Virus record (IMG/VR): IMGVR_UViG_3300023548_000002
Coordinates: 9,460 to 73,459 of that record
DNA length: 64,000 nucleotides
Reading direction: 5' to 3' (one strand)
Source: a virus
How positions within the stretch are numbered: position 1 is the stretch's first letter; each line of letters begins with the position of its first letter. The notes beneath the pieces were generated by a model. That model made no database searches. It saw only the letters and a program-made list of their open reading frames with translations, and had not been told where the DNA came from. The translations under genes were made by a program, and so were the position numbers. Below, piece after piece: positions 25,050 to 63,184 of this stretch.

Positions 25050-26516
25050 TTAAAGAACATTAGGAATAAAATGGATAGATTTCGATGGGTCAAACACCAT
25101 TACTCCACCACAGTAGAATTTATGCTCTTCCCATCCATCTTTAGAAGTTCCAATAGCCGAAATAGCTGAATCTGGGTCGAAAGGATTTCGTAATCCTGGA
25201 ATATACTTGTGGATAATGAAATCTTGACCCTTAACAGCAGCTTTTTGGATATTTGGTTCTCCATCAGTAGTTCCTACATCATACACATCGTATCGATAAG
25301 ATTCTGCTACTCCTCCATCTGGATGTGGAATTTTATTACGGTTACGGTTGTCATACATTGAGTCAATAGATAAGTTGAACTTAATCATATTTGGTCCAAT
25401 GTATTCAACAAATTGACCTCCATATCCTTTACCCATTTTAGCAAAATCTGTTTGGGTTTTATAGATACGGTCCATATCACGGTTGGGAACGAATAACTGA
25501 GTATGGTTCTCAAGAGCTACGTGGAACTGAACAGCTCCTCGTTCACCTGTACGAGCCATAAAGTTTCGCTCATCAAACCCTAATCGACCCTCAGACATAT
25601 CTAACAAGCGATTAGATAGTGTTTGAATATCAAAGGTATTGTAAGTGGAAGTGTAAGAAACTTCAGTTTGCTCACGTAATCCAGAACCTTCTACAATTTC
25701 ATAACCACTCTTACCTCGTTGTAAGTAGCTACCGTTAGCAGTTCGGTTGCTGGTTCCAAAGTGTAACAATCGGTTAATATCTTCACGGAACTCAATATCG
25801 AATTTATATGATTCGTAATGAGTCCATACAGCGAATTTCTTACCACCTTTAGTTACTACTTCGGTACCCATTTTACGGTTCTTAATGTTACCTGGAGTAG
25901 TCTTCTCTGCACGAATTTGTGAGAAGGCATTACGCATAGAAATATGAGATTGGAATTTAATCTCACGTCCTCGTTCCGATAAGGTACGCTCTACAGGAGC
26001 ATATTCACGAGAAAATAATTGTCCCCCTGAAATCTCATCGTAAGGCAAAAACAAGTTAGCATCTCCTGTTAATAACTCGCAAGTATATACAGTAAGATTA
26101 CCGTCTTTGGCTACAGATTTGATTAAGATGGGATATTTCTCATTTTTCTCTCCTACGATTTTTTCTCCTTCAGAGAACCAATCGGCAGCGAATACAAGTT
26201 GGAACTCAGAGTAACCCAATCCTGCTTTATCGGCAGGAGTTACAGGAACTCCATCAATACGGGCTTCTACTAAAGGAATGTTGTCAATCATTTGTGAATA
26301 CAATTCCCAATAGTAGTCTCGGTCATCATCAAAATACTTAACCCCATATTTCGATAATAAAGAGTCAATATCCTGACCGAAGTTTTTTTCTTGAATAAGC
26401 TGTATAAGCTTTGATGCCTTTTGAGGACTTTGAGCAAAGATTGCTCCTAAGTGATTCTCCGTGGTAAGCCCTTTCCACGAAGTGGCATCAGTCATTTGTA
26501 ATGGACTAATTTTCAT
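25050..26516 (-). CDS. major capsid protein (HK97 fold, crAss-like)
   Basis: 488 aa; WKGLTTENHLG, GSGLREQ, TGERG..FH, HPDGG motifs; follows portal and scaffold. Confidence 0.85.
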   Translation of the reverse strand: MKISPLQMTDATSWKGLTTENHLGAIFAQSPQKASKLIQLIQEKNFGQDIDSLLSKYGVKYFDDDRDYYWELYSQMIDNIPLVEARIDGVPVTPADKAGLGYSEFQLVFAADWFSEGEKIVGEKNEKYPILIKSVAKDGNLTVYTCELLTGDANLFLPYDEISGGQLFSREYAPVERTLSERGREIKFQSHISMRNAFSQIRAEKTTPGNIKNRKMGTEVVTKGGKKFAVWTHYESYKFDIEFREDINRLLHFGTSNRTANGSYLQRGKSGYEIVEGSGLREQTEVSYTSTYNTFDIQTLSNRLLDMSEGRLGFDERNFMARTGERGAVQFHVALENHTQLFVPNRDMDRIYKTQTDFAKMGKGYGGQFVEYIGPNMIKFNLSIDSMYDNRNRNKIPHPDGGVAESYRYDVYDVGTTDGEPNIQKAAVKGQDFIIHKYIPGLRNPFDPDSAISAIGTSKDGWEEHKFYCGGVMVFDPSKSIHFIPNVL

Positions 26517-32871: not shown

Positions 32872-33156
32872 TTACCATTGGTTTAGTGGACACTTGTTGG
32901 CTTTCTTAAATGATTTTATCTTTAGCTCTAATAAACATCCACAGCCACATACTTTCTCTCCATTAACTTCCTTACACTTTTTTGGAGAACAAATGCCATT
33001 TACATTAAAATCACATCCTGAGCATTTCTCTATTCTCATAGATATTTCCTCCATCTCCTCGGGAGACAGTAAGTCCATACTATGTTTTAGCTGGTTCATT
33101 ACTGCCTCCATAAGAAGCGGAAAGGTCTGTATATATTTCTTAGCTTTCATTGGCAT
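32872..33156 (-). CDS. small Zn-binding protein
   Basis: CxxC..C..C..CGC..KCPxxxW. Confidence 0.6.
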   Translation of the reverse strand: MPMKAKKYIQTFPLLMEAVMNQLKHSMDLLSPEEMEEISMRIEKCSGCDFNVNGICSPKKCKEVNGEKVCGCGCLLELKIKSFKKANKCPLNQW

Positions 33157-34783
33157 AATCGGGATGTAACATGTGTGCGTTATTAAATATGTTTTCCTTG
33201 TAATGAATTACTGCACTTGTGGTTGCTAACATCAGTGCTGTTGATACTGCATTCTTACAAGCACATACTATCACCTTAGCGGGGTCTATTATCCCTCTTT
33301 CTATCCCATCTACAAAGGTATCTGTTGAAAAGTCTATGGTCAGATTGAATCGCTCTTTCTCCATATTATTTTTAAACCACTTCTCTACTTTCTTTGTAGG
33401 CAAGGTAGAGTTATCTACTAAGGTTTCAAAGGGCTTTAATAAACTCTTCCCTAAAGCTACTAAGGCTTCCCGTTTATATGCTGGTAGTTCCTCTTCTTTG
33501 GCTTTTTGTATTAAGGCACTACCTAAATAAGCTAATAGTATTCCTCCCCCTACTACATATCCCATCTCAAAGGTTGATTGCGTAGCTAAAATAGCATCTT
33601 CTACACGGTCTTTCTTCTCCGTAATCTCTACCTCAGTATATCCTCCAACATATAAACGTGCTACTCCTTTAAAAAGCATTGCTAAACGCTCTCTATGTCT
33701 TTCATCTATTCCTTTTTCCGCCCTCTTGATAGTTTCCTCTATGTAACTAATACGAGCTTCTATCTTTTCTTTATCTCCCTTACCGTTGATAATAGTAGTT
33801 TCCTTTGGAGAGATTATTACTTTCTCTGCTTCCCCCAATATCTCTTTGTTTACTTTAAGCTTTTTCCCTTTGTTATTAAAGACTACTTTACACCCTAATA
33901 ATACTCCTAAGTCTTCCATCATCAATATCTTCATATTCCCTACTCCTGGGGGACGTAATACCGCTACTCTTACTCGCTGAGCTTTAGCATTCTCAAGAAC
34001 AAAGTCCAGTGCTTCCCGCTCTAATTGTGAGGCAAATAGTATTAAATCTCTCTTATTTTCTGCCGCTAAGTAAATTAAGTCGTATAAATCACTTGTTTGC
34101 TTATACTCCAAATCTGTTACTACAATCAGTGGATTGGTAAATTCCGCAGTATCTCCATATATTGTTCTAAATAATGGATGTATGTAAGAATGCTCTACCA
34201 CGGCTCCTCTTAGTAGTTCCGAGTAAGTCTTCCCTGTTTTACTCTCTTCAATGAATATCTTACCATTTTTCCCTACTCTATATACCAACTTACCAATTAT
34301 CTCCCCTAATTCTTTATCATTATTGGTAGATAGTGTTGCAATTCGTATTAAATCTTGCTCTTCCTGTATTGTATGAGCAGTATTCTTAATCTCATCTATT
34401 ACTACTTCTAATACCTCATCAATGACTTTCTTTATACTTGCCATCTTATACTTACTGTCAAGCTCTAATAGCAAGTTAAATAACTCCCTCATAATGATTG
34501 TGGAGGTGGTAGTCCCATCCCCCGCTTCTTCTACTGTCTTAGCTGCTGCTTCTTTGGCTATTTGTGCCCCTACATTAGCTAAACGGTCTTCTAAGAATAT
34601 CTCATTGGCTACCGATACTCCATCTTTGGTTATTCGTGATTTATTATATACACGCTCCAATATGACATTCCTACCATTAGGACCAAGAGTCTGACTTACT
34701 GCATCTGCTAATATGTTTACTCCACATGCTAACCCTTTAGAGGCTTCATCGTTTAATTTTACTTCTCGCTCATCTGGAAACAT
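33140..34783 (-). CDS. groEL: group I chaperonin GroEL
   Basis: TLGPNGRNV, ITKDGVSVA, AGDGTTT, KKDRVEDA, GIIDPAKV. Confidence 0.95.
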   Translation of the reverse strand: MFPDEREVKLNDEASKGLACGVNILADAVSQTLGPNGRNVILERVYNKSRITKDGVSVANEIFLEDRLANVGAQIAKEAAAKTVEEAGDGTTTSTIIMRELFNLLLELDSKYKMASIKKVIDEVLEVVIDEIKNTAHTIQEEQDLIRIATLSTNNDKELGEIIGKLVYRVGKNGKIFIEESKTGKTYSELLRGAVVEHSYIHPLFRTIYGDTAEFTNPLIVVTDLEYKQTSDLYDLIYLAAENKRDLILFASQLEREALDFVLENAKAQRVRVAVLRPPGVGNMKILMMEDLGVLLGCKVVFNNKGKKLKVNKEILGEAEKVIISPKETTIINGKGDKEKIEARISYIEETIKRAEKGIDERHRERLAMLFKGVARLYVGGYTEVEITEKKDRVEDAILATQSTFEMGYVVGGGILLAYLGSALIQKAKEEELPAYKREALVALGKSLLKPFETLVDNSTLPTKKVEKWFKNNMEKERFNLTIDFSTDTFVDGIERGIIDPAKVIVCACKNAVSTALMLATTSAVIHYKENIFNNAHMLHPDYANES

Positions 34784-36384: not shown

Positions 36385-36810
36385 TACTACCCATTTGGGT
36401 ATATTTTACCCCTAAGGTGGTAGCTCCCGCTATCACATAAGAATAAAAACCGTTCCGTTCTTATTCCCTCTTTCAAGTAGTTAGTCCTGACTTCGCTGGT
36501 GATGTCCACAGTTTCTTATGTTCCCTGCGTCACGACCCTCACGGGAGGCTTTCCCATGCCATGTAAAACCCGCCCGAAGCGTCCCAACTACTCTTATATC
36601 CCTATCGGAGAAAACTCCACCGCTATGTTCCTCTATTATTTCAAGAGCGCAGCTTACAATCCGACTTCTGGAGGGCTACCGCACCTTTTAGGCTCCTCAC
36701 CCCCGTACTTTGGTATAAAGAATAGTCCACCTTAGTAACCTTATAGCTACTAAGTAAATTCTTTATCATTATGTATCTGAACTATTCCCTTGGAAAACCA
36801 AAGGGGATGA
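36385..36810 (-). ncRNA. candidate structured RNA leader (or folded origin)
   Basis: GC-richer ORF-poor stretch with nested inverted repeats downstream of a consensus promoter. Confidence 0.35.
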
Positions 36811-36811
36811 G

Positions 36812-36842
36812 CAAATATACTAAATAATATTTATTATTCCAA
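36812..36842 (-). promoter_or_regulatory. Bacteroidota sigma-A type promoter (TTG-N20-TATATTTG)
   Basis: minus strand TTG at 36842-36840 and TATATTTG at 36819-36812. Confidence 0.7.
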
Positions 36843-37070
36843 GAAAAAATTAAATTATTTTTTAAAAATGTGCTTATAAGTAGGACAACTTGCTGTAAAT
36901 GAGTAAGATAGATTGTTGAAAAAAAAATTTATTTTTTTTTTTGAAAGGCATTCTGAAAATTTTTTGTGCACCCCGACGAGAGGGGACTACCCCCCAAGAC
37001 CACCCCAGGGTCGCATGCGCAGGGGAATATACCCCACATCCAACCTCGTAACCCATTAAATCTATATATT

Positions 37071-37655: not shown

Positions 37656-38276
37656 ATGGGAACAACAGACTTAACAGCACTCGAAAAATTCATTGAAAAG
37701 TATTCTGATAAAGTTAATTGGAGTGAAATTTCAGAACATAAAAAACTATCGGAAGAGTTCATTGAGAAATATTCTGATAAAGTTAATTGGTATTGGATTT
37801 CACTCTATCAAAAATTATCAGAAGAATTTATTGATAAACATTCTGATAAAGTTGATTGGTATTGGATTTCAAAATATCAAGAATTATCAGAAGAATTTAT
37901 TGAAAATTACTCTAATAAAATTAATTGGAAACAGATTTCAAAATATCAAAAATTATCTGAAAAATTTATCGAGAAACATTCTGACAAAATTGATTGGAGA
38001 CAAATTTCAGAATATCAAAAATTGTCTGAAAATTTTATTGAAAAGTATAAAGACAAAATTGATTGGGAACATATTTCAGCTTACCAAAAATTATCTGAAG
38101 AATTTATTGAAAAACATTCAGATAAGGTTGATTGGTATTATATTTCAATGCACCAAGAATTATCTGAAAAATTCATTGAGAATCATTCTGATAAAGTTAA
38201 TTGGAAATGGATTTCAGCTTGCCAGAAATTATCAGAAGAATTCATTGAAAAGCATTCTGATAAATTAACTAAATAA
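37656..38276 (+). CDS. Trp-repeat protein 1 (8 x 23 aa)
   Basis: unit LSEEFIEKxSDKVDWxxISxxQK. Confidence 0.85.
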   Translation: MGTTDLTALEKFIEKYSDKVNWSEISEHKKLSEEFIEKYSDKVNWYWISLYQKLSEEFIDKHSDKVDWYWISKYQELSEEFIENYSNKINWKQISKYQKLSEKFIEKHSDKIDWRQISEYQKLSENFIEKYKDKIDWEHISAYQKLSEEFIEKHSDKVDWYYISMHQELSEKFIENHSDKVNWKWISACQKLSEEFIEKHSDKLTK

Positions 38277-38287
38277 AAATAAAAGCT

Positions 38288-38836
38288 ATGAAAACAACAG
38301 AATTAAAAAATCTCGAAGAATTTATTGAGAAACACCCCAATATAGTTAATTGGAGTGAAATTTCAAAATATCAAAAATTATCTGAAAAAATTATTGAAAA
38401 ACATTCTGATAAAGTTGATTGGTTTTGGATTTCGATTAAGCAAAAATTATCGGAGGAATTTATTGAAAAGTATTCTGATAAAGTTAATTGGTATTATATT
38501 TCAATTCACCAAGATTTATCTGAAAATTTCATTGAAAAGTATTCAAATAAAGTTGATTGGAGTGAAATTTCAGCTTACCAGAAACTATCGGAGGAATTTA
38601 TTGAAAAGTATTCAGATAAAGTTGATTGGTATTGGATTTCAGCTTACCAGAAATTATCGGAGGAATTCATTGAGAAGCATTCTGATAAAGTTGATTGGAA
38701 ATGGATTTCAGCTTGCCAGAAATTATCGGAGGAATTTATTGAGAATCATTCTGATAAGGTTGATTGGTATTGGATTTCAGCTTACCAGAAATTATCAGAG
38801 GAATTTATCGAAAAACATTCTGATAAACTCGGTTAA
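38288..38836 (+). CDS. Trp-repeat protein 2 (7 x 23 aa)
   Basis: same repeat unit. Confidence 0.85.
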   Translation: MKTTELKNLEEFIEKHPNIVNWSEISKYQKLSEKIIEKHSDKVDWFWISIKQKLSEEFIEKYSDKVNWYYISIHQDLSENFIEKYSNKVDWSEISAYQKLSEEFIEKYSDKVDWYWISAYQKLSEEFIEKHSDKVDWKWISACQKLSEEFIENHSDKVDWYWISAYQKLSEEFIEKHSDKLG

Positions 38837-39658: not shown

Positions 39659-40117
39659 ATGGGAAAATTAATCATGAAAGCCCATCCTGAAACAGGAGTA
39701 TTGGGCACTGAAGCAACTTTAAGCAATGGTAACAAAGGAGCATGGGTTCGAGTTGAGCAATCCACTGTTCAAATAAATAACGGCTTTATTGAAGAGCGAA
39801 AACGAGTAGCATTTGCTTTCGTTCCCGATGCCCTTAAAGCTCAAATATTGGACGGTAAGAAAGATGGTGATGAATTTCCTTTGGAAGGAAAAATTGTCAT
39901 CAAAGAAGCGTTACAACCTTTCTACGAAGGACAAGAACCCAAACGTGCAGGAGAAGATGGAGGTATCTGCGTAAAAAATGGTCGTCCTATCTACCGTCAA
40001 ATAGTATTTACCTCAAACATGGCGGAAGAAGATGAATTAATTCCCCACGATGCTATTGTGGAGAGTTTAGCATCTTTAGAAGCTACACAAGATACCAATT
40101 CTGCTGAAGAGCTGTAA
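39659..40117 (+). CDS. conserved Bacteroidota-phage protein, possibly SSB-like
   Basis: VRVEQ..PKRAGEDGGIC..GRPIYR motif, beta-rich, acidic tail. Confidence 0.5.
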   Translation: MGKLIMKAHPETGVLGTEATLSNGNKGAWVRVEQSTVQINNGFIEERKRVAFAFVPDALKAQILDGKKDGDEFPLEGKIVIKEALQPFYEGQEPKRAGEDGGICVKNGRPIYRQIVFTSNMAEEDELIPHDAIVESLASLEATQDTNSAEEL

Positions 40118-40123
40118 TTGGTC

Positions 40124-40167
40124 AGGGATTATGGTAATAAAGGGAGGTTCGATTCCTCCCAATCCCT
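40124..40167 (+). ncRNA. tRNA-like minihelix (acceptor stem plus T arm)
   Basis: agggatt/aatccct 7-bp stem and ggagg-ttcgatt-cctcc T arm; no D or anticodon arm. Confidence 0.55.
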
Positions 40168-40269
40168 CTAAATCCAAAAGTAACCCCATATAATGTATAG
40201 TGTTGTATTTCCAGAAAATTACCACAGAGTAGATGGGGTGAAATTGGATTTATACAGGTTTAATGGGTG

Positions 40270-40308
40270 AACCCATTAGCATCCAACGGATGTTAATGGG
40301 TTTTTTTT
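40270..40308 (+). terminator. intrinsic terminator
   Basis: aacccattagcatcc-aac-ggatgttaatgggtt plus T run. Confidence 0.85.
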
Positions 40309-40456
40309 GTTTTAAATTAAAATAAGATACATTCTACCCAACAATCTTTCACCATCCACCCAACACTCTATGAATTCCCCAACCTCTTTTCAGCAATAAC
40401 CCATTTTACACACATTTACAAAATTTATTTATTTAATATACTAAAAGCAATATACA

Positions 40457-40723
40457 ATGGAGAAACTGCACACACAACCAAAAGTAATAGCCTTTTCTTC
40501 CTCAATAGATGAAGAAAAACAATTCCTTTACACCAACTTTGAATTTATTGGAGAACCAGAAAATGGAGATGTCTTTGTAACAGAAAACCAGATAGAATTA
40601 TTAGAAGAATGGTTACAACAAGTAAGAGAAGAAGATAATAAAGTTATCGAAGAACTATTAACCACACTCATACACCATATAAAGAAAGAGAACTACAATC
40701 TTATTATTATTTATACATTTTAA
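40457..40723 (+). CDS. hypothetical protein
   Basis: 88-aa ORF. Confidence 0.55.
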   Translation: MEKLHTQPKVIAFSSSIDEEKQFLYTNFEFIGEPENGDVFVTENQIELLEEWLQQVREEDNKVIEELLTTLIHHIKKENYNLIIIYTF

Positions 40724-40728
40724 CAAGA

Positions 40729-40950
40729 ATGCTTATGGATATAAAAAGAGCAATAGAAATTCTCAAACAGTATAATAAATGGAGAACTGATAAAGAAATA
40801 CCATCAGTAAAAAAGATGCCACGTCCTTGTGAGATTACAGAAGCTATAAATACAGTCGTTGGAACATATACCCTCTTTGAATTCATGCGAGATAAAAATG
40901 GGGTAGCATTAACATTTGATGAACTTGGGGAAATATTGGGGAATAAATAG
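40729..40950 (+). CDS. hypothetical protein
   Basis: 73-aa ORF. Confidence 0.55.
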   Translation: MLMDIKRAIEILKQYNKWRTDKEIPSVKKMPRPCEITEAINTVVGTYTLFEFMRDKNGVALTFDELGEILGNK

Positions 40951-40958
40951 TATATTTG
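40951..40958 (+). promoter_or_regulatory. Bacteroidota-type -7 promoter element heading the small-ORF array
   Basis: TATATTTG in intergenic position. Confidence 0.55.
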
Positions 40959-41028
40959 CATTATAAGGGTTATGGTCATTATAGTGAATAGCGTAATTAT
41001 GTATTTAATAACTTAAAATTTAAATAAA

Positions 41029-41310
41029 ATGACAGAAGACGCAAAAAAAGTATGGAAAATAATGGAAGAAGATTTTGGCTGGAGTAATAAACCTAAGGAT
41101 TTTCATTTAGAATATTTTGAAGATATTATAAAAGCTACCAAGAAAGCATTAACTTTAAACGTAGTTAGCCGAAGTTTACTAAGTGAATATGATATAGGTA
41201 TAATTAGCGACTATGGTGTAGGGAATGTAGAATGGTGGCAAAATTATGTAAGAGAAGAAGTAGCGAGATGTAATGATTACTGGGTATCGCAATTACAAGA
41301 CGGGGATTAA
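41029..41310 (+). CDS. hypothetical cassette-like protein
   Basis: 93 aa; internal ALTLNVVSRS encodes a GTTA site. Confidence 0.6.
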   Translation: MTEDAKKVWKIMEEDFGWSNKPKDFHLEYFEDIIKATKKALTLNVVSRSLLSEYDIGIISDYGVGNVEWWQNYVREEVARCNDYWVSQLQDGD

Positions 41311-41396
41311 CTTAATGGCAAAGGCACGCTAACAAATTTGTATAAGCGTAATTGTGTATTTAATAACTTAAAATAATAACACAAAAATTTAGAATT

Positions 41397-41585
41397 ATGG
41401 GACAAATAATTTATCAAACAATTTACACCTGCGATTTATGCGGAAAAACTCCTGAAGATGGTGAGAAATTATGGCACATGGGAAATGAAGTATGGTGTGA
41501 AGAATGTTGTAATAAATCTTATTATGAAGACGATGAAGACGATGAAGATGACAATTGTGATGCAACCGAAAGTGATATTTATTAA
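41397..41585 (+). CDS. small Zn-finger protein with acidic tail
   Basis: CDLC..CEEC; DEDDEDD. Confidence 0.6.
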   Translation: MGQIIYQTIYTCDLCGKTPEDGEKLWHMGNEVWCEECCNKSYYEDDEDDEDDNCDATESDIY

Positions 41586-41648
41586 TTACGCATAACGAAT
41601 TTGTATAAGCGTAATTGTGTATTTAATAACTTAAAATAAAAAAAGATT

Positions 41649-41858
41649 ATGGCTGGAATTAATTACATAAACGAACAACAAGAAGGTGTAAGAGATTTGA
41701 AATTTAACCCAAATGCTGATATTCCAACAAAACTTGGGTATAGTTATTATCAATCGGATACAAATAATATTTGGTTTGTAAAAAGAACAAAAGACCAAAA
41801 AATTATAGCCTCATTTGTGGAAAAGAAACACTTAATTCTTTTCTTAAATGCACTATAA
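41649..41858 (+). CDS. hypothetical cassette-like protein
   Basis: stop codon is the TAA of a TAAC box. Confidence 0.6.
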   Translation: MAGINYINEQQEGVRDLKFNPNADIPTKLGYSYYQSDTNNIWFVKRTKDQKIIASFVEKKHLILFLNAL

Positions 41859-41991
41859 CGGATCGCGGCTATACTTAGTGCGTAATTTTAACATTAAATA
41901 TTAATTTAAAAACATAAATAAAAATGGGTGAAAATAAATTTTTAAACGAAAATGGTAGAGCATTAAGTATAGCCGATGTTATGAGCAGTGC
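41855..41991. mobile_element. attC-like recombination hairpin
   Basis: left arm ataac(gg)atc(gc)ggctatacttagtgc pairs with right arm gcattaagtatagccgatgttat, leaving extrahelical bases. Confidence 0.55.
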
Positions 41992-42226
41992 TTTAACCGA
42001 AAACGAAATTAAAATAGCACAAATTCAATCTGCCATAAAGAAACTTGGATATCAATGGCAAGAACATCAATTTAATGATGGATTTGATGAAGTCTTTATT
42101 GAAATAGCAAAAGATAAAGACCCTTCCGCAATTGATAGACACAAGGAAGATGCTGGATGGGGTAGGTTTGGCAGATTGACAGCTTGGACAATGGCTTTAG
42201 AGTGGGCGATTCAGCATTGCTCATAA
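41924..42226 (+). CDS. hypothetical cassette-like protein
   Basis: starts inside the hairpin loop, reads through GTTA, stops in TAAC. Confidence 0.6.
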   Translation: MGENKFLNENGRALSIADVMSSALTENEIKIAQIQSAIKKLGYQWQEHQFNDGFDEVFIEIAKDKDPSAIDRHKEDAGWGRFGRLTAWTMALEWAIQHCS

Positions 42227-42259
42227 CTCAGAATATCCGCAATAAAAAAATTTAATATT

Positions 42260-42496
42260 ATGAAAATAAAAGCAACAGTAGTAGAAATACTACAAGACAA
42301 CTATCAAGGTGGTTCTGGACTACCAATAAAAAGGGATATTATGGTTAATATACCAGACGATACAATAGCCATAAATATACTTGACGCAACTTATGTTAAT
42401 GTCAGGGAAAAAAGATTGAATAAAATGTGGGGAGATGGTTTAAAAAATACACCATACCTGTCAATAATTTCAGTTGAGATACTTCCCACCGCTTAA
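42260..42496 (+). CDS. hypothetical cassette-like protein
   Basis: flanked by tatccgcaat / attgcgcataac. Confidence 0.6.
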   Translation: MKIKATVVEILQDNYQGGSGLPIKRDIMVNIPDDTIAINILDATYVNVREKRLNKMWGDGLKNTPYLSIISVEILPTA

Positions 42497-42551
42497 TTGC
42501 GCATAACTATTTATATAAAAGTAATTTATTAACCAATAAATATAAAAAATT

Positions 42552-42809
42552 ATGGAGAGTAAATTAAGAAGATTAATAATGCTGTATGGAGCAGCCACAA
42601 TGATTAGCGATTTTGGTTATGAAACCACCTCTGAATATAAAGAATTGACTGACGAACAAAAAGCAGAAATAAAAGCCATTGCGGAACAAAAGAAATTAGA
42701 ACGCCTTAAAAAACAAGGTGTAAAAGAATATTTCTACGGAGATAAAGTTATTTATGCCTGTAATAAGAAAAATGCAGATAGAAAATCACGAAAGAAAGGT
42801 TACTTATAG
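42552..42809 (+). CDS. hypothetical protein
   Basis: 85 aa; IYACNKKNADRK motif. Confidence 0.6.
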   Translation: MESKLRRLIMLYGAATMISDFGYETTSEYKELTDEQKAEIKAIAEQKKLERLKKQGVKEYFYGDKVIYACNKKNADRKSRKKGYL

Positions 42810-42903
42810 CCCTTGTTATATTGCATTTTAATTCAACATAATTGTGCAGTGGGTTTTTATTTTTAATTATCCAAATTAGCTTTTTAATAAAAAATAAATT
42901 ATT

Positions 42904-43116
42904 ATGAAAAAAAAAATAGTAATTTTATTAGCAATACCTTTCCTAATTCTTTCCTGTAAGACAAAAGGAATTTTTAGAGAAATAGATACTGAATACAGTG
43001 GAAACACTTATGTAGTAGTTATTGATAGCTGTGAGTATTTATATATAGAAATGCACAATGTAAGATTATTTTCACATAAGGGGAACTGCAGATTTTGTAA
43101 AATACGAAATAATTGA
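42904..43116 (+). CDS. putative lipoprotein
   Basis: MKKK + hydrophobic + ILSC lipobox; IDSCEY..HKGNC. Confidence 0.65.
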   Translation: MKKKIVILLAIPFLILSCKTKGIFREIDTEYSGNTYVVVIDSCEYLYIEMHNVRLFSHKGNCRFCKIRNN

Positions 43117-43244
43117 TTAATTATAACAGGAATAAATATAATCTACAGAACTCAGAAATAATATTTATAGTTAAAGAAATAATTAGAAGAAAACGAAAAA
43201 CCAATAATGTGTTGTAGGGTTTACATTTAATGCAGAAGTAAAGC

Positions 43245-43460
43245 ATGGAACCATTTAAAGAATTTAACGACAATGATGTCTGCCCTATTTGTGGAGCAAG
43301 TGAAAATAAAGATATTGTTCTAATACAAATAGCAGGAACACAAAAAGCTAATATATCACAAGCTAAACAAGTGCATTTAGAGTGCTTAGTAAATACTGTG
43401 ATATATTATCCAAAAGAAAGAGTAATAGGTGCATATGCGCCATATAAAAAAGGAAAATAA
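43245..43460 (+). CDS. small Zn-binding protein
   Basis: CPIC..HLEC. Confidence 0.55.
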   Translation: MEPFKEFNDNDVCPICGASENKDIVLIQIAGTQKANISQAKQVHLECLVNTVIYYPKERVIGAYAPYKKGK

Positions 43461-43481
43461 CCACTTAAATTAATTAAAACT

Positions 43482-43883
43482 ATGAAAAAGTTATTAGTAT
43501 TAGCAGTAATAAGCTTATTTATTACAAGCACAGTAAAAAGTCAAGTAAAAACTTATACATTAAGTGATGTAACTGTAATTTTTACAGATTCATTAACCTC
43601 ACTGAAATCACTCAAATTTTATCCGAATCCAGTTACAGTAAAGATTGACGAAAAAGAAACTCTTGCGGTAGTAGATATAGAAAAAGCATTTTTAGCTATT
43701 TATCGCATTATAAATATTTATACATTTGAAGATAACTACGGACGTCCTTACACTGTATATCTAATGATAGATGTGGTGAATAAGAGTTCAGCGGCAGTAA
43801 AAGTTATTGATTCTTCTTATGTTATCTATACTATTGAGGATGTTATAATATCAGGACCTGTAAAAGAGTATTCAGTAAACTAA
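43482..43883 (+). CDS. secreted/periplasmic protein
   Basis: signal peptide ending VKS-Q (Bacteroidota N-terminal Gln rule). Confidence 0.6.
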   Translation: MKKLLVLAVISLFITSTVKSQVKTYTLSDVTVIFTDSLTSLKSLKFYPNPVTVKIDEKETLAVVDIEKAFLAIYRIINIYTFEDNYGRPYTVYLMIDVVNKSSAAVKVIDSSYVIYTIEDVIISGPVKEYSVN

Positions 43884-43912
43884 CTCTTTTTATCTGATAA
43901 ACTATAAGACAT

Positions 43913-43948
43913 ACTACATTCTGATTATGTAATCAGAATGTAGTTTTT
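43913..43948 (+). terminator. 15-bp perfect inverted repeat, probable terminator
   Basis: actacattctgatta-tg-taatcagaatgtagt followed by tttt. Confidence 0.7.
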
Positions 43949-43998
43949 ATAGAGTTTTATATTTTGTAAATAATTAATCAATTACTTAAAAGTTTAAA

Positions 43999-44484
43999 AT
44001 GATGGCAACCACAGAATTAAAAAAGCTCGAAGAATTAATTGAGCAAGACCCAAATAAAGTTGATTGGGAATGGATTTCAAAATATCAAGAACTATCCGAA
44101 GAATTTATTGAAAAATATTCCAATAAAATTTATTGGAGGGAAATTTCAAAGTATCAAAAATTATCAGAAGAATTTATTGAAAAACATTCTGACAAAGTTG
44201 ATTGGTATTGGATTTCAATGCACCAAAAATTATCTGAAAAGTTTATTGAAAAGCATAAAGATAAAGTTGATTGGAAACGTATATCAATGAAACAAGAACT
44301 ATCAGAAGAATTTATCGAAAAATATTCTGACAAAGTTGATTGGTATTGGATTTCAATAGTACAGAAATTATCCGAGGAATTTATTGAAAGGCATTCTAAT
44401 AAAGTTAATTGGGAATGGTTTGTAAAACTTCAAAAATTATCTGAAGAATTCATTGAGAAACATTCTGATAAATTAACTAAATAA
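43999..44484 (+). CDS. Trp-repeat protein 3 (6 x 23 aa)
   Basis: same repeat unit. Confidence 0.85.
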   Translation: MMATTELKKLEELIEQDPNKVDWEWISKYQELSEEFIEKYSNKIYWREISKYQKLSEEFIEKHSDKVDWYWISMHQKLSEKFIEKHKDKVDWKRISMKQELSEEFIEKYSDKVDWYWISIVQKLSEEFIERHSNKVNWEWFVKLQKLSEEFIEKHSDKLTK

Positions 44485-44495
44485 AAATAAAAGTT

Positions 44496-45323
44496 ATGAA
44501 AAAAGAAGAATTAACAAAGCTCGAAGAATTAATTGAGAAAGACCCCAATAAAGTTAATTGGTATTGGATTTCAATTCACCAAGAATTATCCGAAGAGTTT
44601 ATTGAAAAATACTCTGATAAAGTTGATTGGGAACGGATTTCAAAATATCAAAAATTATCTGAAAAATTTATTGAAAAGTATTCAGATAAAATTGATTGGT
44701 TTCTGATTTCAAAATACCAAAAATTATCTGAAAAATTTATTGAAAAGTATTCAGATAAAGTTGATTGGGAATGGATTTCAAAATATCAAAAATTATCGGA
44801 AGAATTTATTGAAAAGTATTCAGATAAAGTTGATTGGGAATGGATTTCAAAATATCAAAAATTATCTGAAGAATTTATTGAAAAGCATAAAGATAAAGTT
44901 AGTTGGTATTATATTTCAATTCACCAAAAATTATCGGAAGAATTTATTGAAAAACATAAAGATAGGGTTGATTGGTATTGGATTTCAGTTGAACAAAAAT
45001 TATCCGAAAAATTCATTGAGAAACATTCTGATAAAGTTGATTGGCATTGGATTTCAATATCCCAAGAATTATCTGAAAAATTTATTGAAAAGTATAAAGA
45101 TAAAGTTGATTGGGAGCAGATTTCAATACACCAAAAATTATCTGAAAAATTCATTGAAAAATACTCTGATAAAGTTGATTGGGAATGGATTTCAAAATAT
45201 CAAAAATTATCGGAAGAATTTATTGAAAAGCATAAAGATAAAGTTAATTGGTACTGGATTTCAATTTGGCAAGAACTTTCTGAAGAATTTATTGAAAAGC
45301 ATTCTGATAAATTAACTAAATAA
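44496..45323 (+). CDS. Trp-repeat protein 4 (11 x 23 aa)
   Basis: same repeat unit. Confidence 0.85.
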   Translation: MKKEELTKLEELIEKDPNKVNWYWISIHQELSEEFIEKYSDKVDWERISKYQKLSEKFIEKYSDKIDWFLISKYQKLSEKFIEKYSDKVDWEWISKYQKLSEEFIEKYSDKVDWEWISKYQKLSEEFIEKHKDKVSWYYISIHQKLSEEFIEKHKDRVDWYWISVEQKLSEKFIEKHSDKVDWHWISISQELSEKFIEKYKDKVDWEQISIHQKLSEKFIEKYSDKVDWEWISKYQKLSEEFIEKHKDKVNWYWISIWQELSEEFIEKHSDKLTK

Positions 45324-45334
45324 AAATAAAAGCT

Positions 45335-45820
45335 ATGAAAACAACAGAATTAACAAAGCTCGAAGAATTTATTGAGAAATACCCCAATATAGTTAATTGG
45401 AGTGAAATTTCAAAATACCAAGAATTATCTGAAAAATTCATTGAAAAGTATTCTGATAAAGTTGATTGGAAATGGATTTCAAAATACCAAGACTTATCTG
45501 AAAAATTTATTGAGAAACATTCTGATAAAGTCGATTGGAAACAGATTTCAATCTACCAAGAATTATCTGAAGAATTCATTGAAAAACATTCTGATAAACT
45601 TGATTGGGGACAGATTTCAGTCTACCAGAAATTATCTGAAAAATTCATTGAAAAGTATTCCGATAAAGTTGATTGGATTTGGATTTCAATTTACCAGAAA
45701 CTATCTGAAAAATTCATTGAAAAGTATTCCGATAAAGTTAATTGGATTTGGATTTCAATTTACCAGAAACTATCTGAAAAATTCATTGAGAAACATTCTG
45801 ATAAATTAACTAAATTTTAA
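45335..45820 (+). CDS. Trp-repeat protein 5 (6 x 23 aa)
   Basis: same repeat unit. Confidence 0.85.
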   Translation: MKTTELTKLEEFIEKYPNIVNWSEISKYQELSEKFIEKYSDKVDWKWISKYQDLSEKFIEKHSDKVDWKQISIYQELSEEFIEKHSDKLDWGQISVYQKLSEKFIEKYSDKVDWIWISIYQKLSEKFIEKYSDKVNWIWISIYQKLSEKFIEKHSDKLTKF

Positions 45821-45834
45821 TAAAAATAAAAGCT

Positions 45835-46455
45835 ATGAAAAAAGAAGAATTAACAAAGCTCGAAGAATTAATTGAGAAAGACCCCAATATAGTTGATTGG
45901 AGTGAAATTTCAAAATACCAAAAATTATCTGAAGAATTTATTGAAAAGCATTCTGATAAAGTTGATTGGGAATGGATTTCAAAATTCCAAGAATTATCTG
46001 AAGAGTTCATTGAAAAGCATTCTGATAAAGTTGATTGGAGTAAAATTTCTGAATACCAAAAATTATCTGAAGAATTTATTGAAAAACATAAAGATAGGGT
46101 TGATTGGTATTGGATTTCAGTTGAACAAAAATTATCCGAAAAATTCATTGAGAAACATTCTGATAAAGTTGATTGGCATTGGATTTCAGTTGAACAAAAA
46201 TTATCCGAAAAATTCATTGAGAAACATTCTGATAAAGTTGATTGGCATTGGATTTCAATATCCCAAGAATTATCTGAAAAATTTATTGAAAAGTATTCAG
46301 ATAAAGTTGATTGGGAGCAGATTTCAAAATATCAAAAATTATCGGAAGAATTTATTGAAAAGCATAAAGATAAAGTTAATTGGTACTGGATTTCAATTTG
46401 GCAAGAACTTTCTGAAGAATTTATTGAAAAGCATTCCGATAAATTAACTAAATAA
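45835..46455 (+). CDS. Trp-repeat protein 6 (8 x 23 aa)
   Basis: same repeat unit. Confidence 0.85.
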   Translation: MKKEELTKLEELIEKDPNIVDWSEISKYQKLSEEFIEKHSDKVDWEWISKFQELSEEFIEKHSDKVDWSKISEYQKLSEEFIEKHKDRVDWYWISVEQKLSEKFIEKHSDKVDWHWISVEQKLSEKFIEKHSDKVDWHWISISQELSEKFIEKYSDKVDWEQISKYQKLSEEFIEKHKDKVNWYWISIWQELSEEFIEKHSDKLTK

Positions 46456-61039: not shown

Positions 61040-62423
61040 TACAACACCAAAATTACCTTTAAAGGAGTTAAAAGGACCAAGAGTAAAAGTTATTTTATCT
61101 AATAAGATAACTGCTCAAATAGCATCATTACATCGTCATATTAAAGAAGTAGAATGGAGTGGATTTATCACTTACAAATTAAAAGATAATATTACTATTG
61201 AAGAAATTATTAAAGATGGCGGAGAAATATTAGTAGATTCCATTTTCCCGTTGAATGTCGGAAGTAGTGCATATACGGACTTTGATACTGATATTACAGG
61301 ATTACCTGAAGCATTACAGAACAAACTCTTAAATGGATATATGAAAGGATATATGCACACACATCATTCTATGGATACATTCTTTTCTGGAACAGATGAG
61401 TCAGAACTACGAACTAATGCACCAGAGACTATAATATACCTAAGTATTATAGTAAACTTTAGAAATGGAGGTAATCCCATTGCTCGATTATGTTTTAATG
61501 GAGAAGAAAATAGTAGTCCAGTAATTAAATTATTTGGTAAAGAAATTACACAAAAACCCAATACAATAAAGTATGTTTATTACTATAACTGTGATGTTGT
61601 TTATGAAGAGGAAGAAGCTATTGTAAAATCTATTAAAGAAATTAGAGAGAAAAATAAACCTGTTCAACCAACATTGTGGGGAGGAAATCCTTATGGAGGT
61701 TACTATAATAATGGTTACAATAGACATCACTCATCGTATGATGCTAATATGATAGGAACTACAAATGGTAGAAAAAACGTATTATCTGAAAGAGAACGAG
61801 ATTCCAAATGGTTCTTTATTGACTTAGATGCTACATTAAAAGGAAAGAAAGTAGCCTTTTCTAAACGTCTATACACTCCTACACCTCATCAAATAAGAGA
61901 AGCGTGGATAGGTATAGTAAACTCATACAATAAATTAAAAGAAGACAAAAAAGAAGAATTATTTTATACTGTACTGGACAAAGTAGATATTGAAATTATT
62001 AAAGATGCAGAGGAGTTCTTAAGCAAAAATTGGTATTATGTCTCTGTATCGCCTGGTATTAATAAGAAAATAAAAGAGATAATGAATGAATTAATAGAAA
62101 TGATGGACGAGCAGAATGCAGATTTAATGGACGAATATTTAGTTGAAGCTCTTGGGTATATCACTAAAAATACAGAAAAAGAAATAGAAGAGTTAATCTC
62201 TGCTCAAACAGATAAAGAAAAGAAAATAGCTATTAATAAAATAAAATTTGAAAACAAAACATCTATTGATTCTGCTTTCACTCACATGATGTTTTCTGAT
62301 GAAGCATACTTAGAAATTCTTGAAGAGTTCTTTGAAGAATATTTAGAACATGCTAACAAAAAGAAAACAAAAGAAATAAGAGAAATATTATATATGATAA
62401 AAACTGAAATTGGAATAATATGA
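60972..62423 (+). CDS. JAB/MPN metalloprotease domain protein
   Basis: EWSG..HTHHSMDTFFSGTD (E..HxH..S..D). Confidence 0.8.
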   Translation: MTLKKITMKTSYINKKSTLVNTNTTPKLPLKELKGPRVKVILSNKITAQIASLHRHIKEVEWSGFITYKLKDNITIEEIIKDGGEILVDSIFPLNVGSSAYTDFDTDITGLPEALQNKLLNGYMKGYMHTHHSMDTFFSGTDESELRTNAPETIIYLSIIVNFRNGGNPIARLCFNGEENSSPVIKLFGKEITQKPNTIKYVYYYNCDVVYEEEEAIVKSIKEIREKNKPVQPTLWGGNPYGGYYNNGYNRHHSSYDANMIGTTNGRKNVLSERERDSKWFFIDLDATLKGKKVAFSKRLYTPTPHQIREAWIGIVNSYNKLKEDKKEELFYTVLDKVDIEIIKDAEEFLSKNWYYVSVSPGINKKIKEIMNELIEMMDEQNADLMDEYLVEALGYITKNTEKEIEELISAQTDKEKKIAINKIKFENKTSIDSAFTHMMFSDEAYLEILEEFFEEYLEHANKKKTKEIREILYMIKTEIGII

Positions 62424-63184
62424 AAAGATATGAACGACAAAAAGGAGCACCATGGCTACAGTCAAATAATACCTACGATATAACTATCATTGGTGCAGGA
62501 ACCATTGGAAGTTGGACAACTTTATCTTTAGTTAAAGCAGTAGATAAGATTGCCAGAATTAGTGTTGTAGATTACGATGTAATTGAAGGGCATAATTCAA
62601 CAGGACAACTTTATCCCGAAGCTTTTGTAGGGCTCTATAAGATATATGCTTTAAATGAAATTATTCAGTTTTTAGCAGAAGGAAGCTCTTTAACTTTGAA
62701 TCATTCAGAAGTAAATGAAGAACTGATAGAAACCTCTTGGGGAGAATTGTTTGACGAAAAAATTCCACATTTTATTATTATCGCTGTAGATAATATGGAA
62801 GTAAGAAACCTTCTTTGGAAGTTTATTTGTGATAGTCAAAAAAAAGGCTTTTCTGTGATAGGAATAGATACTCGATTATCCCCAGAAGTATGTGAAATTC
62901 TTACAAGCAGAACTCATAAAGAATCTCAATATATTTTAGATAACTATATCTATGATAAAAAAGAGCTATCTGAATTACCATGTTCATACAAAAGCACCAC
63001 TTATACAGGGATGTATGCCGCTTCCATGATTACTTCCCAAGTAACTAATATTATTAGTAATATTAATCTCAAAGCTTCATTATATCCTGCACCTTTCAGA
63101 ATATTAATGAACTTTAATACAAATAAGCAAGAATATGAACATTTTAGTGAAAAAGAGAACGCTGCCTCTGTGGTCGCTGGATAG
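62420..63184 (+). CDS. ThiF/E1-like adenylating enzyme
   Basis: RYERQ, IIGAGTIGS, DYDVIEGHN..Q, AVDNMEVR, DTR, LPCSYK. Confidence 0.85.
   Translation: MKRYERQKGAPWLQSNNTYDITIIGAGTIGSWTTLSLVKAVDKIARISVVDYDVIEGHNSTGQLYPEAFVGLYKIYALNEIIQFLAEGSSLTLNHSEVNEELIETSWGELFDEKIPHFIIIAVDNMEVRNLLWKFICDSQKKGFSVIGIDTRLSPEVCEILTSRTHKESQYILDNYIYDKKELSELPCSYKSTTYTGMYAASMITSQVTNIISNINLKASLYPAPFRILMNFNTNKQEYEHFSEKENAASVVAG

Follow-up and report, generated by a model that had tools for sequence, protein, structure and literature searches.

Probable translated junction arms of shuffled modules in small accessory genes of an environmental phage

The stretch of DNA analysed here, 64,000 nucleotides (nt) of the virus record IMGVR_UViG_3300023548_000002 (positions 9,460 to 73,459 of the record; hereafter the window), carries a plus-strand block of small ORFan genes at 37.6-51 kb. 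Two open reading frames (ORFs) of this block, ORF 41029-41310 and ORF 41924-42226, hold a short peptide motif that arises when the 3' strand of a DNA/RNA helix bracketing gene modules is translated, and the arms of such helices are very probably translated junctions of shuffled modules. A reading made from the letters of the window (the sequence-only reading) had taken the arms for translated recombination sites that supply start codons and swappable N-termini. The window's own record (G000) is linear, has 73,459 bases and is estimated to be 76% complete. Related records G001-G009 (29-100% complete) were examined with it, G001 being the record rated 100% complete and the home of the richest array, L022. 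N-terminal module (N-module) DNA was compared at 12 metagenome loci and 2 viral loci. The coordinates of the features are given in Table 1.

ORF 41924 spans two consecutive helices, designated II and I. All 16 positions of the helix II arms are paired, with one G·T. As the sequence-only reading had stated, the start codon lies inside the hairpin loop, and the frame continues through the right arm as ALSIADV|MSSA, with GTT 41978-41980 encoding Val19. Helix I (15 bp, one G·T), which that reading had not named, begins two bases past helix II and encloses the gene body together with its stop codon. When the 15 kb from 37 to 52 kb were scanned for runs of at least 14 bp with at most one G·T and a loop of 30-400 nt, helices II and I were the only ones obtained, and 12 first-order Markov resamples each gave 0 or 1. 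Both helices are present in the minimum-energy structure of 41845-42240 (396 nt; z = -6.9, 0 of 100 shuffles as good); the other strand of this segment folds at z = -5.3. Within the window, the intact two-helix layout is found at ORF 41924 only. An exact 17-mer covering arm plus leader gave 13 matches in bacterial genomes, none of them with a partner arm paired at 15/16 or better, and all 13 are therefore regarded as chance.

The AlphaFold2 model of the ORF 41924 product has a coil leader and an alpha-beta-beta-alpha body (mean predicted local distance difference test score, pLDDT, 78.9). A fold search with this model against PDB and BFVD returned no match at E ≤ 0.001. The best fold matches of the body, T7 gp1.2-like dGTPase inhibitors, were non-significant (E 0.09-0.3, template modelling score 0.42-0.50), and similarity to double-stranded RNA-binding-domain folds was weak and likewise non-significant (probability below 0.25).

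Table 1. Positions of the junction features in the window and two-helix examples from related loci.
Feature	Position	Strand	Remarks
ORF 41029-41310	41029..41310	+	93 aa; N-module residues 1-46; C-terminal module (C-module) 47-93
Vestigial junction	41146..41176	+	Former helix II 3' arm GCATTAACTTTAAACG (ALTLN-), then GTTAGCCGAAGTT
Bulged weak complement of 41164-41176	41308..41335	+	Ends GCTAAC (YAAC word) past ORF 41029 stop; absent from fold
50-nt junction-plus-leader direct repeat D1, copy 1	40975..41024	+	68% identical to reference copy
D1 repeat, copy 2 (reference)	41330..41379	+	Upstream of ORF 41397
D1 repeat, copy 3	41593..41642	+	96% identical; upstream of ORF 41649
ORF 41924-42226	41924..42226	+	100 aa; leader peptide, conserved body from residue 19
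3' end of preceding unit, GCACTATAAC	41850..41859	+	Stop TAA 41856-41858 of ORF 41649-41858; boundary word YAAC
Spacer GGATCG	41860-41865	+	Between YAAC word and 5' arm of helix II
Helix II 5' arm, CGGCTATACTTAGTGC	41866..41881	+	In 5' untranslated region
Helix II loop, 78 nt	41882..41959	+	A/T-rich 42-nt leader, ATG 41924, 12 codons (MGENKFLNENGR)
Helix II 3' arm, GCATTAAGTATAGCCG	41960..41975	+	Frame 0, reading A-L-S-I-A-(D)
Helix I 5' arm, GTTATGAGCAGTGCT	41978..41992	+	Reading V-M-S-S-A; internal ATG
Helix I 3' arm, AGCATTGCTCATAAC	42213..42227	+	Stop TAA 42224-42226 inside; ends ATAAC (YAAC)
Two-helix examples, L022	ORFs 4669-4992, 6812-7096, 8734-9066	n/a	8734-9066 reads ALNISAV
Two-helix example, L007	ORF 3853-4095	n/a	22-bp helix II

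In ORF 41029 the translated motif is retained and the helix is lost. The sequence-only reading had described this gene as the analogue of ORF 41924, and the letters at the vestigial junction, the frame ALTLNVV|SRS and the GTT codon (Val46) agree with it; the arm, however, is unpaired, and only a bulged complement follows the gene (GTTAGC/GCTAAC and AAGTT/AACTT, 6 + 5 bp with a 14-nt bulge between them). In this genome the ALTLN arm lacks a 5' partner, and 40950-41345 folds at z = +1.18, with 90 of 100 shuffles as good. ORFs 41029, 41397 and 41649 are each preceded by a D1 copy and have lost clear partner arms; assembly contigs of run X2 break at D1 copies 2 and 3. The AlphaFold2 model of the ORF 41029 product (mean pLDDT 71) has a helical hairpin (H3-16, H24-43) followed by a C-terminal helix, and the junction is predicted as a low-confidence linker, with pLDDT below 50 at residues 45-51 and 53-55. 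A six-frame translation of the window has 6 instances of the pattern A-L-x-[IL]-x-x-V, and only those of ORFs 41029 and 41924 are within small plus-strand ORFs. The peptide pattern alone is not distinctive, and the weight of the observation rests on relatives rather than on the motif count.

ORF 41397-41585(+) encodes 62 residues, is Cys-rich and has the acidic C-terminal tail CDATESDIY. A tail end of this type recurs in P0050, P0054 and P0072, which have the ORF 41029-type N-module, and this shared tail is another sign of mosaicism below the level of the gene.

For ORF 41029, 43 relatives were obtained among 44 candidates. Their alignment is nearly invariant from M1 to V46 and has no conservation beyond, the 46-residue N-module being present in 40 of the 43. 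The 38 tails that could be split off by the pattern formed 30 BLASTP clusters (E 1e-3 or better), in a clustering whose sensitivity is limited by the short peptides. Perhaps fifteen Cys-rich tails may form one fast-evolving zinc-ribbon family; the helical tails and the tails of 47-80 residues are clearly distinct from these. P0031, P0032 and P0035 share the C-module of the window from N-G-V-S-R-S onward, each behind an N-module of its own that is unrelated to the others and to that of ORF 41029, so that together with ORF 41029 one tail is found on four heads. The 29 relatives of ORF 41924 (among 32 candidates) are conserved from V-M-S-S onward and vary in their leaders, which mostly have 12-22 residues and end in the arm (PCTIH, ALSIA, DFIAD and others). 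Four of them have long N-modules, and 3 of the 29 start at the Met of VMSS, the ATG in the helix I arm. The two families meet in P0013, where a leader is joined to an ORF 41924-type body through ALTIPVV, the arm peptide of the ORF 41029 family. A stand-alone N-module of 47 residues, with its stop just past the arm, is found at L008.

A gene pair from a single genome has the same organisation. L010 genes 1451-1678 and 2250-2477 have the same 5' arm and unrelated 38-codon N-modules, and they share a 100% identical block of 131 nt that runs from the first base of the helix II 3' arm to ...ACAAC. The break in homology expected at the Val was found: N- and C-termini are swapped at the motif in frame, and instead of continuous alignments across the motif with unchanged N-termini, the families have tails and heads that differ there. 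In the sequences compared, arm-bounded modules are the units of mosaicism, so that unrelated N- and C-modules are joined in frame at the helix II/helix I junction.

The DNA of the related loci showed what the peptide stands for. At N-module loci, GCA TTA ACT ATA CCN (ALTIP) is the 3' arm of a helix whose 5' arm lies 27-28 nt upstream of the ATG. Pairing of helix II is 16/16 in L003, L007, L009, L010 and L013, 15/16 in L017 and 13/16 in L014. The arms vary between phages and yet stay complementary, as in L011, where ALVIAG has a matching upstream arm, and 5' arms with compensatory changes were found at 7 of 11 related loci. In an 11-row alignment, 79.6% of cells are paired versus 30-41% with the partner slid, and 7 of the 16 pairs have changed on both sides. 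On four of five measures the observed value was out of reach of all 500 shuffles; on the fifth, 5 of them attained it.

These results bear on a further alternative, namely that chance inverted repeats and ordinary divergence, with N-termini merely evolving faster, would account for the locus. The lack of enrichment of the peptide motif in the window, the copy of ORF 41029 without a helix and the many Cys-rich tails that could be one fast-evolving zinc-ribbon family would all fit it. It is nevertheless already contradicted by the covariation of helix II, by the identical L010 block beside unrelated N-modules in one genome, by the four unrelated N-modules on one C-module and by the resamples, which yield 0-1 comparable helices versus two adjacent ones in the window, and we consider it barely credible.

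The helices recur in arrays of small genes at related loci. Contiguous helices of at least 11 bp, with at most 3 G·T and loops up to 1000 nt, were more numerous on the sense strand than on the antisense strand or in shuffled sequence at L026 (48 vs 23 vs 14-18), L022 (69 vs 36 vs 25-31) and L007 (31 vs 15 vs 4-10). A boundary-anchored helix of at least 11 bp was present in 15 of 22 ORFs of L022 (shuffled 2-4; complement strand 8/22), 11 of 23 of L026 (shuffled 0-2; complement strand 1/23), 5 of 6 of L007 (shuffled 0-1; complement strand 1/6) and 2 of 9 in the window at 40.4-43.3 kb (shuffled 0). A degenerate pattern scan of viral contigs gave at least 119 loci, nearly all of them chance, and L131 alone added real helices. 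In Cellulophaga phage phi14:2, the only crAss-like phage for which a published transcriptome was found, boundary helices were present in 2 of 31 ORFs, which is at background level (complement 6, shuffled 4), and transcriptome data from that phage are therefore not transferable to the arrays. The crAss-type capsid family is present in G002 and G003 and was not found in G001, G004 and G006, so the layout crosses phage types.

The layout of the units is regular. Helix II reaches from the 5' untranslated region to codon 10-12 or to about codon 38-42, and helix I starts 1-6 nt beyond it, extending from GTTR... to ...YAAC at or just past the stop. In 7 of 7 related loci shown, YAACGG and 2-5 nt precede the 5' arm of helix II, and in every one the 3' arm is followed by 1-2 nt and then GTTR. 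Eight units have 27-28 nt between arm and ATG, and the leader of ORF 41924 has 42 nt. Helix II loops (69-237 nt) hold the leader, the ATG and 10-70 codons; most measure either 69-78 nt (5 units) or 139-148 nt (10 units) despite unrelated cargo, others having 89, 161 and 237 nt. The proposal that the site supplies the translation start is supported in that the start codon lies inside the junction-helix loop in 15 of 15 tabulated units. The ORF reads through the 3' arm in all 15 and does so in frame 0 in 10; these ten amount to only about five independent cases, and the frame is thus not fixed. Translational bypassing was dropped as a candidate, the frame being open through the arms. Bodies are bracketed by their own private arms of 13-22 bp, the arms vary between helices in their outer 10 nt, hairpins of both classes also occur empty in the arrays, and all array modules lie on one strand.

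The arrays also hold other genes. At L022 77-766(-), L007 4554-5318(+) and L026 8174-9613(+) they encode D12-class N6-adenine DNA methyltransferases (E 1e-8 and 3e-19), a glycosyltransferase-like protein and a sulfotransferase, the L007 methylase being bracketed by arms 862 nt apart. At L012 1497-1552 the array closes with a class II hairpin that is empty and a lone TGTTGTGTGC arm; a core gene of 827 residues comes immediately downstream, with no partner arm behind it. This may mark the fixed end of the array. No relatives were found for the large ORF beside the L012 array.

Mismatches in the helices were counted by strand-neutral detection that accepted both transition mismatches, for the boundary-anchored set and for all helices. 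On the sense strand, 41 boundary-anchored helices had 58 G·T versus 11 A·C and all 88 helices had 122 versus 44, where parity is our own estimate from base composition; the 15 motif-anchored helices had 30 versus 2. The excess of G·T over A·C indicates selection for pairing of the single-stranded sense sequence, be it RNA or DNA. N4-type hairpin promoters on the template strand were dropped as a candidate because the template strand pairs worse.

The same counts argue against invertible switches (invertons or shufflon-like systems), in which the arms would flank a segment flipped by a recombinase, turning a gene on or off or changing its N-terminus. A 16-bp inverted repeat around a 78-148-nt segment with a start codon would fit such a switch, and the segments of invertible promoters fall within this size range. 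The tolerance of the arms for G·T and not for A·C, however, matters only for single strands, the array modules all share one strand, and the DNA contigs over the window have no strand-changing joints, although contigs drop rare variants. Neither an invertase nor a tyrosine recombinase was found (PF00239 in G000; PF00589 in G000 and 8 related records), and this explanation is highly improbable. A second DNA sample, X2, contains a near-identical phage in which no joints fall at the arms.

The data show that the helices are real, that they covary and that their pairing is better on the sense than on the other strand; the ORFs read through their arms. We propose that small accessory genes of some environmental phages would consist of two consecutive helix-bracketed modules. 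In helix II, a segment about 27-40 nt upstream of the ATG would pair with one inside the ORF and close a loop holding the A/T-rich leader, the start codon and either some 10-12 codons or a domain of about 38 codons; in helix I, one to two bases on, the next codons (GTTR...) would pair with the stop region (...YAAC). Exchanges would most likely arise by ordinary homologous or microhomology recombination between co-infecting phages, targeted to shared arms, leaders and boundary words in the manner of the promoter-early stem-loops (PeSLs) of T4-type phages, and selection would retain the in-frame joints. The helices would be kept for a role in the sense-strand transcript, where a closed loop could present the start region insulated from the cargo, an arrangement that would suit hosts initiating without a Shine-Dalgarno sequence. 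Whether the exchange is general rather than site-specific we regard as evenly balanced, and an action of the helices mainly in RNA is proposed tentatively. To the reading as a whole, with junction-framed modules, general recombination and RNA-acting helices, we assign a probability of roughly 0.45.

Two natural experiments speak for general recombination. L009 is identical to L010 except that it lacks the 799 nt between the two copies of the shared block, a difference made by homologous recombination between repeated modules in which cargo is exchanged inside constant arms. The DNA identity of L003 and L014 (83-100%) is confined to a stretch of about -40 to +160 counted from the ATG, and helix II of L014 is chimeric, with a 5' arm of the L017 type, which indicates a crossover in the conserved core or the leader. 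Breakpoints were read at the inner ends of arms, in the conserved TAGTGC core (L014), next to YAACG, at ...ACAAC and inside a body, and the exact bond relative to G|TT is hidden by words shared at the breakpoints. The idea that exchange at GTT makes in-frame fusions thus stands as far as the fusions go; the breakpoints are scattered, and GTT was not demonstrated as the exchange point.

The tyrosine recombinase family PF00589 was absent from G000, G001-G004 and G006-G009, partly incomplete records (29-100%), its only match being in G005, whose locus L030 has no helices. The serine recombinase family PF00239 and RNase III (PF14622) were absent from G000, the sole record searched for PF00239, and the Y1 transposase family PF01797 was absent from the five records searched (G000-G004). 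A diversity-generating retroelement was dropped as a candidate, the two L010 N-modules sharing no DNA similarity. A dif/Xer site was rejected as well: GCGCATAA occurs at 42499 and 41589, with no recognisable second half-site by comparison with the dif sequence.

Several observations weigh against the proposed reading. The 5' arm is absent in 4 of the 11 aligned rows (window ORF 41029, L008, L012 and L018), so helix II is dispensable. The layout occurs in phages of different capsid types and is absent from the crAss-like phi14:2, a distribution that fits a mobile system better than the expression habit of a lineage. The YAAC and GTTR words are the triplets conserved in integron attC sites, and a role in RNA leaves them unexplained. 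L012 and L015 are 97.7% identical up to CCCAACGT and identical again right after TAACG, with unrelated genes (149 aa vs 92 aa) between these joints; this is a whole-gene replacement with YAACG on both sides and about 5-6 shared bases at the joints, and it looks site-specific. That the short leaders are translated is deduced from their open frames. The metatranscriptome contigs X3 and X5 are pieces (41937-42157, 42297-42554 and few others) without RNA ends or strand, and nothing follows from them for transcription or processing.

An integron-like system, the main rival reading, would explain several of these points. In such a model, the junction YAAC-spacer-arm II-loop-arm II'-spacer-GTTR would be an attC-like site folding as single-stranded DNA, the folding strand being the sense strand, in mirror polarity to integrons. 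A recombinase acting in trans, or one not yet recognised, would cut at the AAC/GTT words, and the private helix I arms would extend the stem in the excised circle; with the start codon carried in the loop, every inserted body would become an in-frame fusion. The order R''-L''-loop-L'-R', with AAC/GTT words and unequal spacers, is common to the window (41856-41980) and all 7 related loci shown. The L012/L015 replacement has YAACG at its ends and hardly any shared sequence at the joints, the duplicated L010 block stops on its right exactly at ...ACAAC, empty hairpins of both classes occur, and the layout is found in phages with and without the crAss-type capsid. The gene strand of the window has a positive GC skew, and this, with the single-strand bias, would put the sense strand on the lagging-strand template.

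Against such a system, PF00589 is missing from the window's record and 8 related records, the 100% complete G001 among them, and neither a serine recombinase (G000) nor a Y1 transposase (G000-G004) was found. The breakpoints are scattered over loop edges, the arm core (L014) and the inside of a body, L009/L010 give direct evidence for homologous recombination between repeated modules, the loops of 69-237 nt hold coding sequence and exceed attC dimensions, and pairing favours the strand opposite to the one that folds in integrons, the bottom strand. We regard integron-like cassettes as possible though doubtful. In a wider version, a mirror-polarity integron with no cis-encoded integrase would fold its sense strand, be cut at YAAC and carry its site 5' in the cassette. 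Each junction would serve at once as single-strand helix and as coding linker, and leaders or N-modules would be combined freely with bodies into in-frame fusions; such a natural domain-shuffling machine in some Bacteroidota-type phages is unlikely.

The phage is crAss-like. ORF 25050-26516(-) matches the Crassvirus major capsid family (E 3e-130), and from 51.5 kb onward the plus strand carries genes for DNA polymerase A, helicases and a primase. A GroEL/Cpn60-family chaperonin gene (33140-34783(-), PF00118, E 9e-47) adjoins the structural block, and a ThiF-family (E1-like adenylyltransferase) gene lies at 62420-63184(+) within the replication block. Ten small ORFs of the window had no function-naming PHROGs or Pfam match under E 1e-4, blastn of 40000-44000 against the phage collection gave no match, and Rfam over 36-52 kb at E up to 1 gave four chance-level matches, none near the translated arms. 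At 36736-37070, where the coding strand switches, a 335-nt gene-free stretch has a locally C-rich tract (ccccgacgagaggggactaccccccaagaccacccc) and could represent an origin or a non-coding RNA. What looks like an intrinsic terminator, a local hairpin (16 bp, 3-nt loop) with a T run behind it, follows ORF 39659-40117 at 40269-40303(+). Six adjacent paralogous genes (37656-38836 and 43999-46455, plus strand) are built of repeats of about 23 residues (ISKYQKLSEEFIEKYSDKVDW) and have a common 11-nt spacer, aaataaaagct, between them. In these paralogues 69 nt (45118 to 45188) are missing from a contig of the RNA library, and at the same place a DNA contig steps back 64 nt; both are probably repeat-number variants. 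For phi14:2, a preprint reports highly transcribed intergenic RNAs in the early region and no common motif upstream of early transcripts (10.1101/2020.03.07.982082).

Early and accessory genes of phages form the chief store of host-takeover and anti-defence functions still to be discovered, and what makes them diversify so rapidly is a standing question. In the present families, exchange involves units below the size of a gene, one 46-residue N-module being found on at least 30 tail clusters and one tail on four heads, and a single genome (L010) has two genes that differ only in the head. Because the joint is a defined and searchable nucleic-acid structure, translation of foreign cargo for phages of hosts without Shine-Dalgarno sequences, recombination on the folded strand and functional partnership of heads and tails all become testable. 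If the helices insulate the start region, they would be a ready natural design for portable expression modules. In keyword searches of the main texts of a limited literature collection, phage helices that bracket genes and are translated were nowhere described.

Shufflons and invertible tail-fibre segments (R64 Rci/sfx, Mu Gin, P1 Cin) depend on a dedicated recombinase, act within one genome and change only the C-terminus. The arrays resemble them in having the site inside the coding sequence and a constant part joined in frame to alternatives, and differ in that no invertase was found, all modules share one strand and genomes differ from each other in both halves. Rickettsia palindromic elements and in-frame miniature inverted-repeat transposable elements are many copies of one selfish element in conserved genes. 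With these the arrays share a hairpin-forming sequence that is translated within a protein; here, in contrast, the arms are private to each module and mark its ends, and the window has one intact helix pair. The attC site of integrons is compact and non-coding, about 57-141 nt, with the ORF outside, whereas the loops here measure 69-237 nt by themselves and are coding.

Other features of integrons come closer. AAC...GTT words stand at the base of an imperfect hairpin in attC/attI as in the arrays, and the stop codon lies in the ...TAAC word. The sequence-only reading had set the site-supplied start and the in-frame fusions apart from classical integron cassettes; for the start there is a precedent, the closest one being given by PMC8876359, which describes ORF-11 and ORF-18 of attI1, for which the recombination site supplies the start through translational coupling, ORF-11 acting by termination and reinitiation, as well as short ORFs in attC sites. 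As in attI1 according to that source, a short ORF with its own initiation region starts in the site and crosses the crossover point; unlike ORF-11 as described there, the loop in the arrays contains the actual start codon, and as many as 38 codons or more are fused to the body. The same source gives the folded bottom strand as the active strand of integrons (PMC8876359), whereas the two-helix layout pairs better on the sense strand; in addition, no IntI was found and the body arms are private, with 13-22 bp.

PeSLs are the closest phage precedent for the shuffling. They are described as short conserved regulatory elements beside small ORFans of lytic phages, each an intergenic sigma-70-type promoter with a local terminator hairpin, whose recombination deletes, inserts and replaces genes without a dedicated recombinase (PMC2839356, PMC4122927). 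Both systems have plastic ORFan regions in which recombination at junction elements makes insertions, deletions and replacements (here L009/L010, L012/L015 and the three D1 copies). In the arrays, unlike PeSLs, the helix strands flank the module and one strand is coding, and the products are in-frame chimeras rather than swaps of whole genes.

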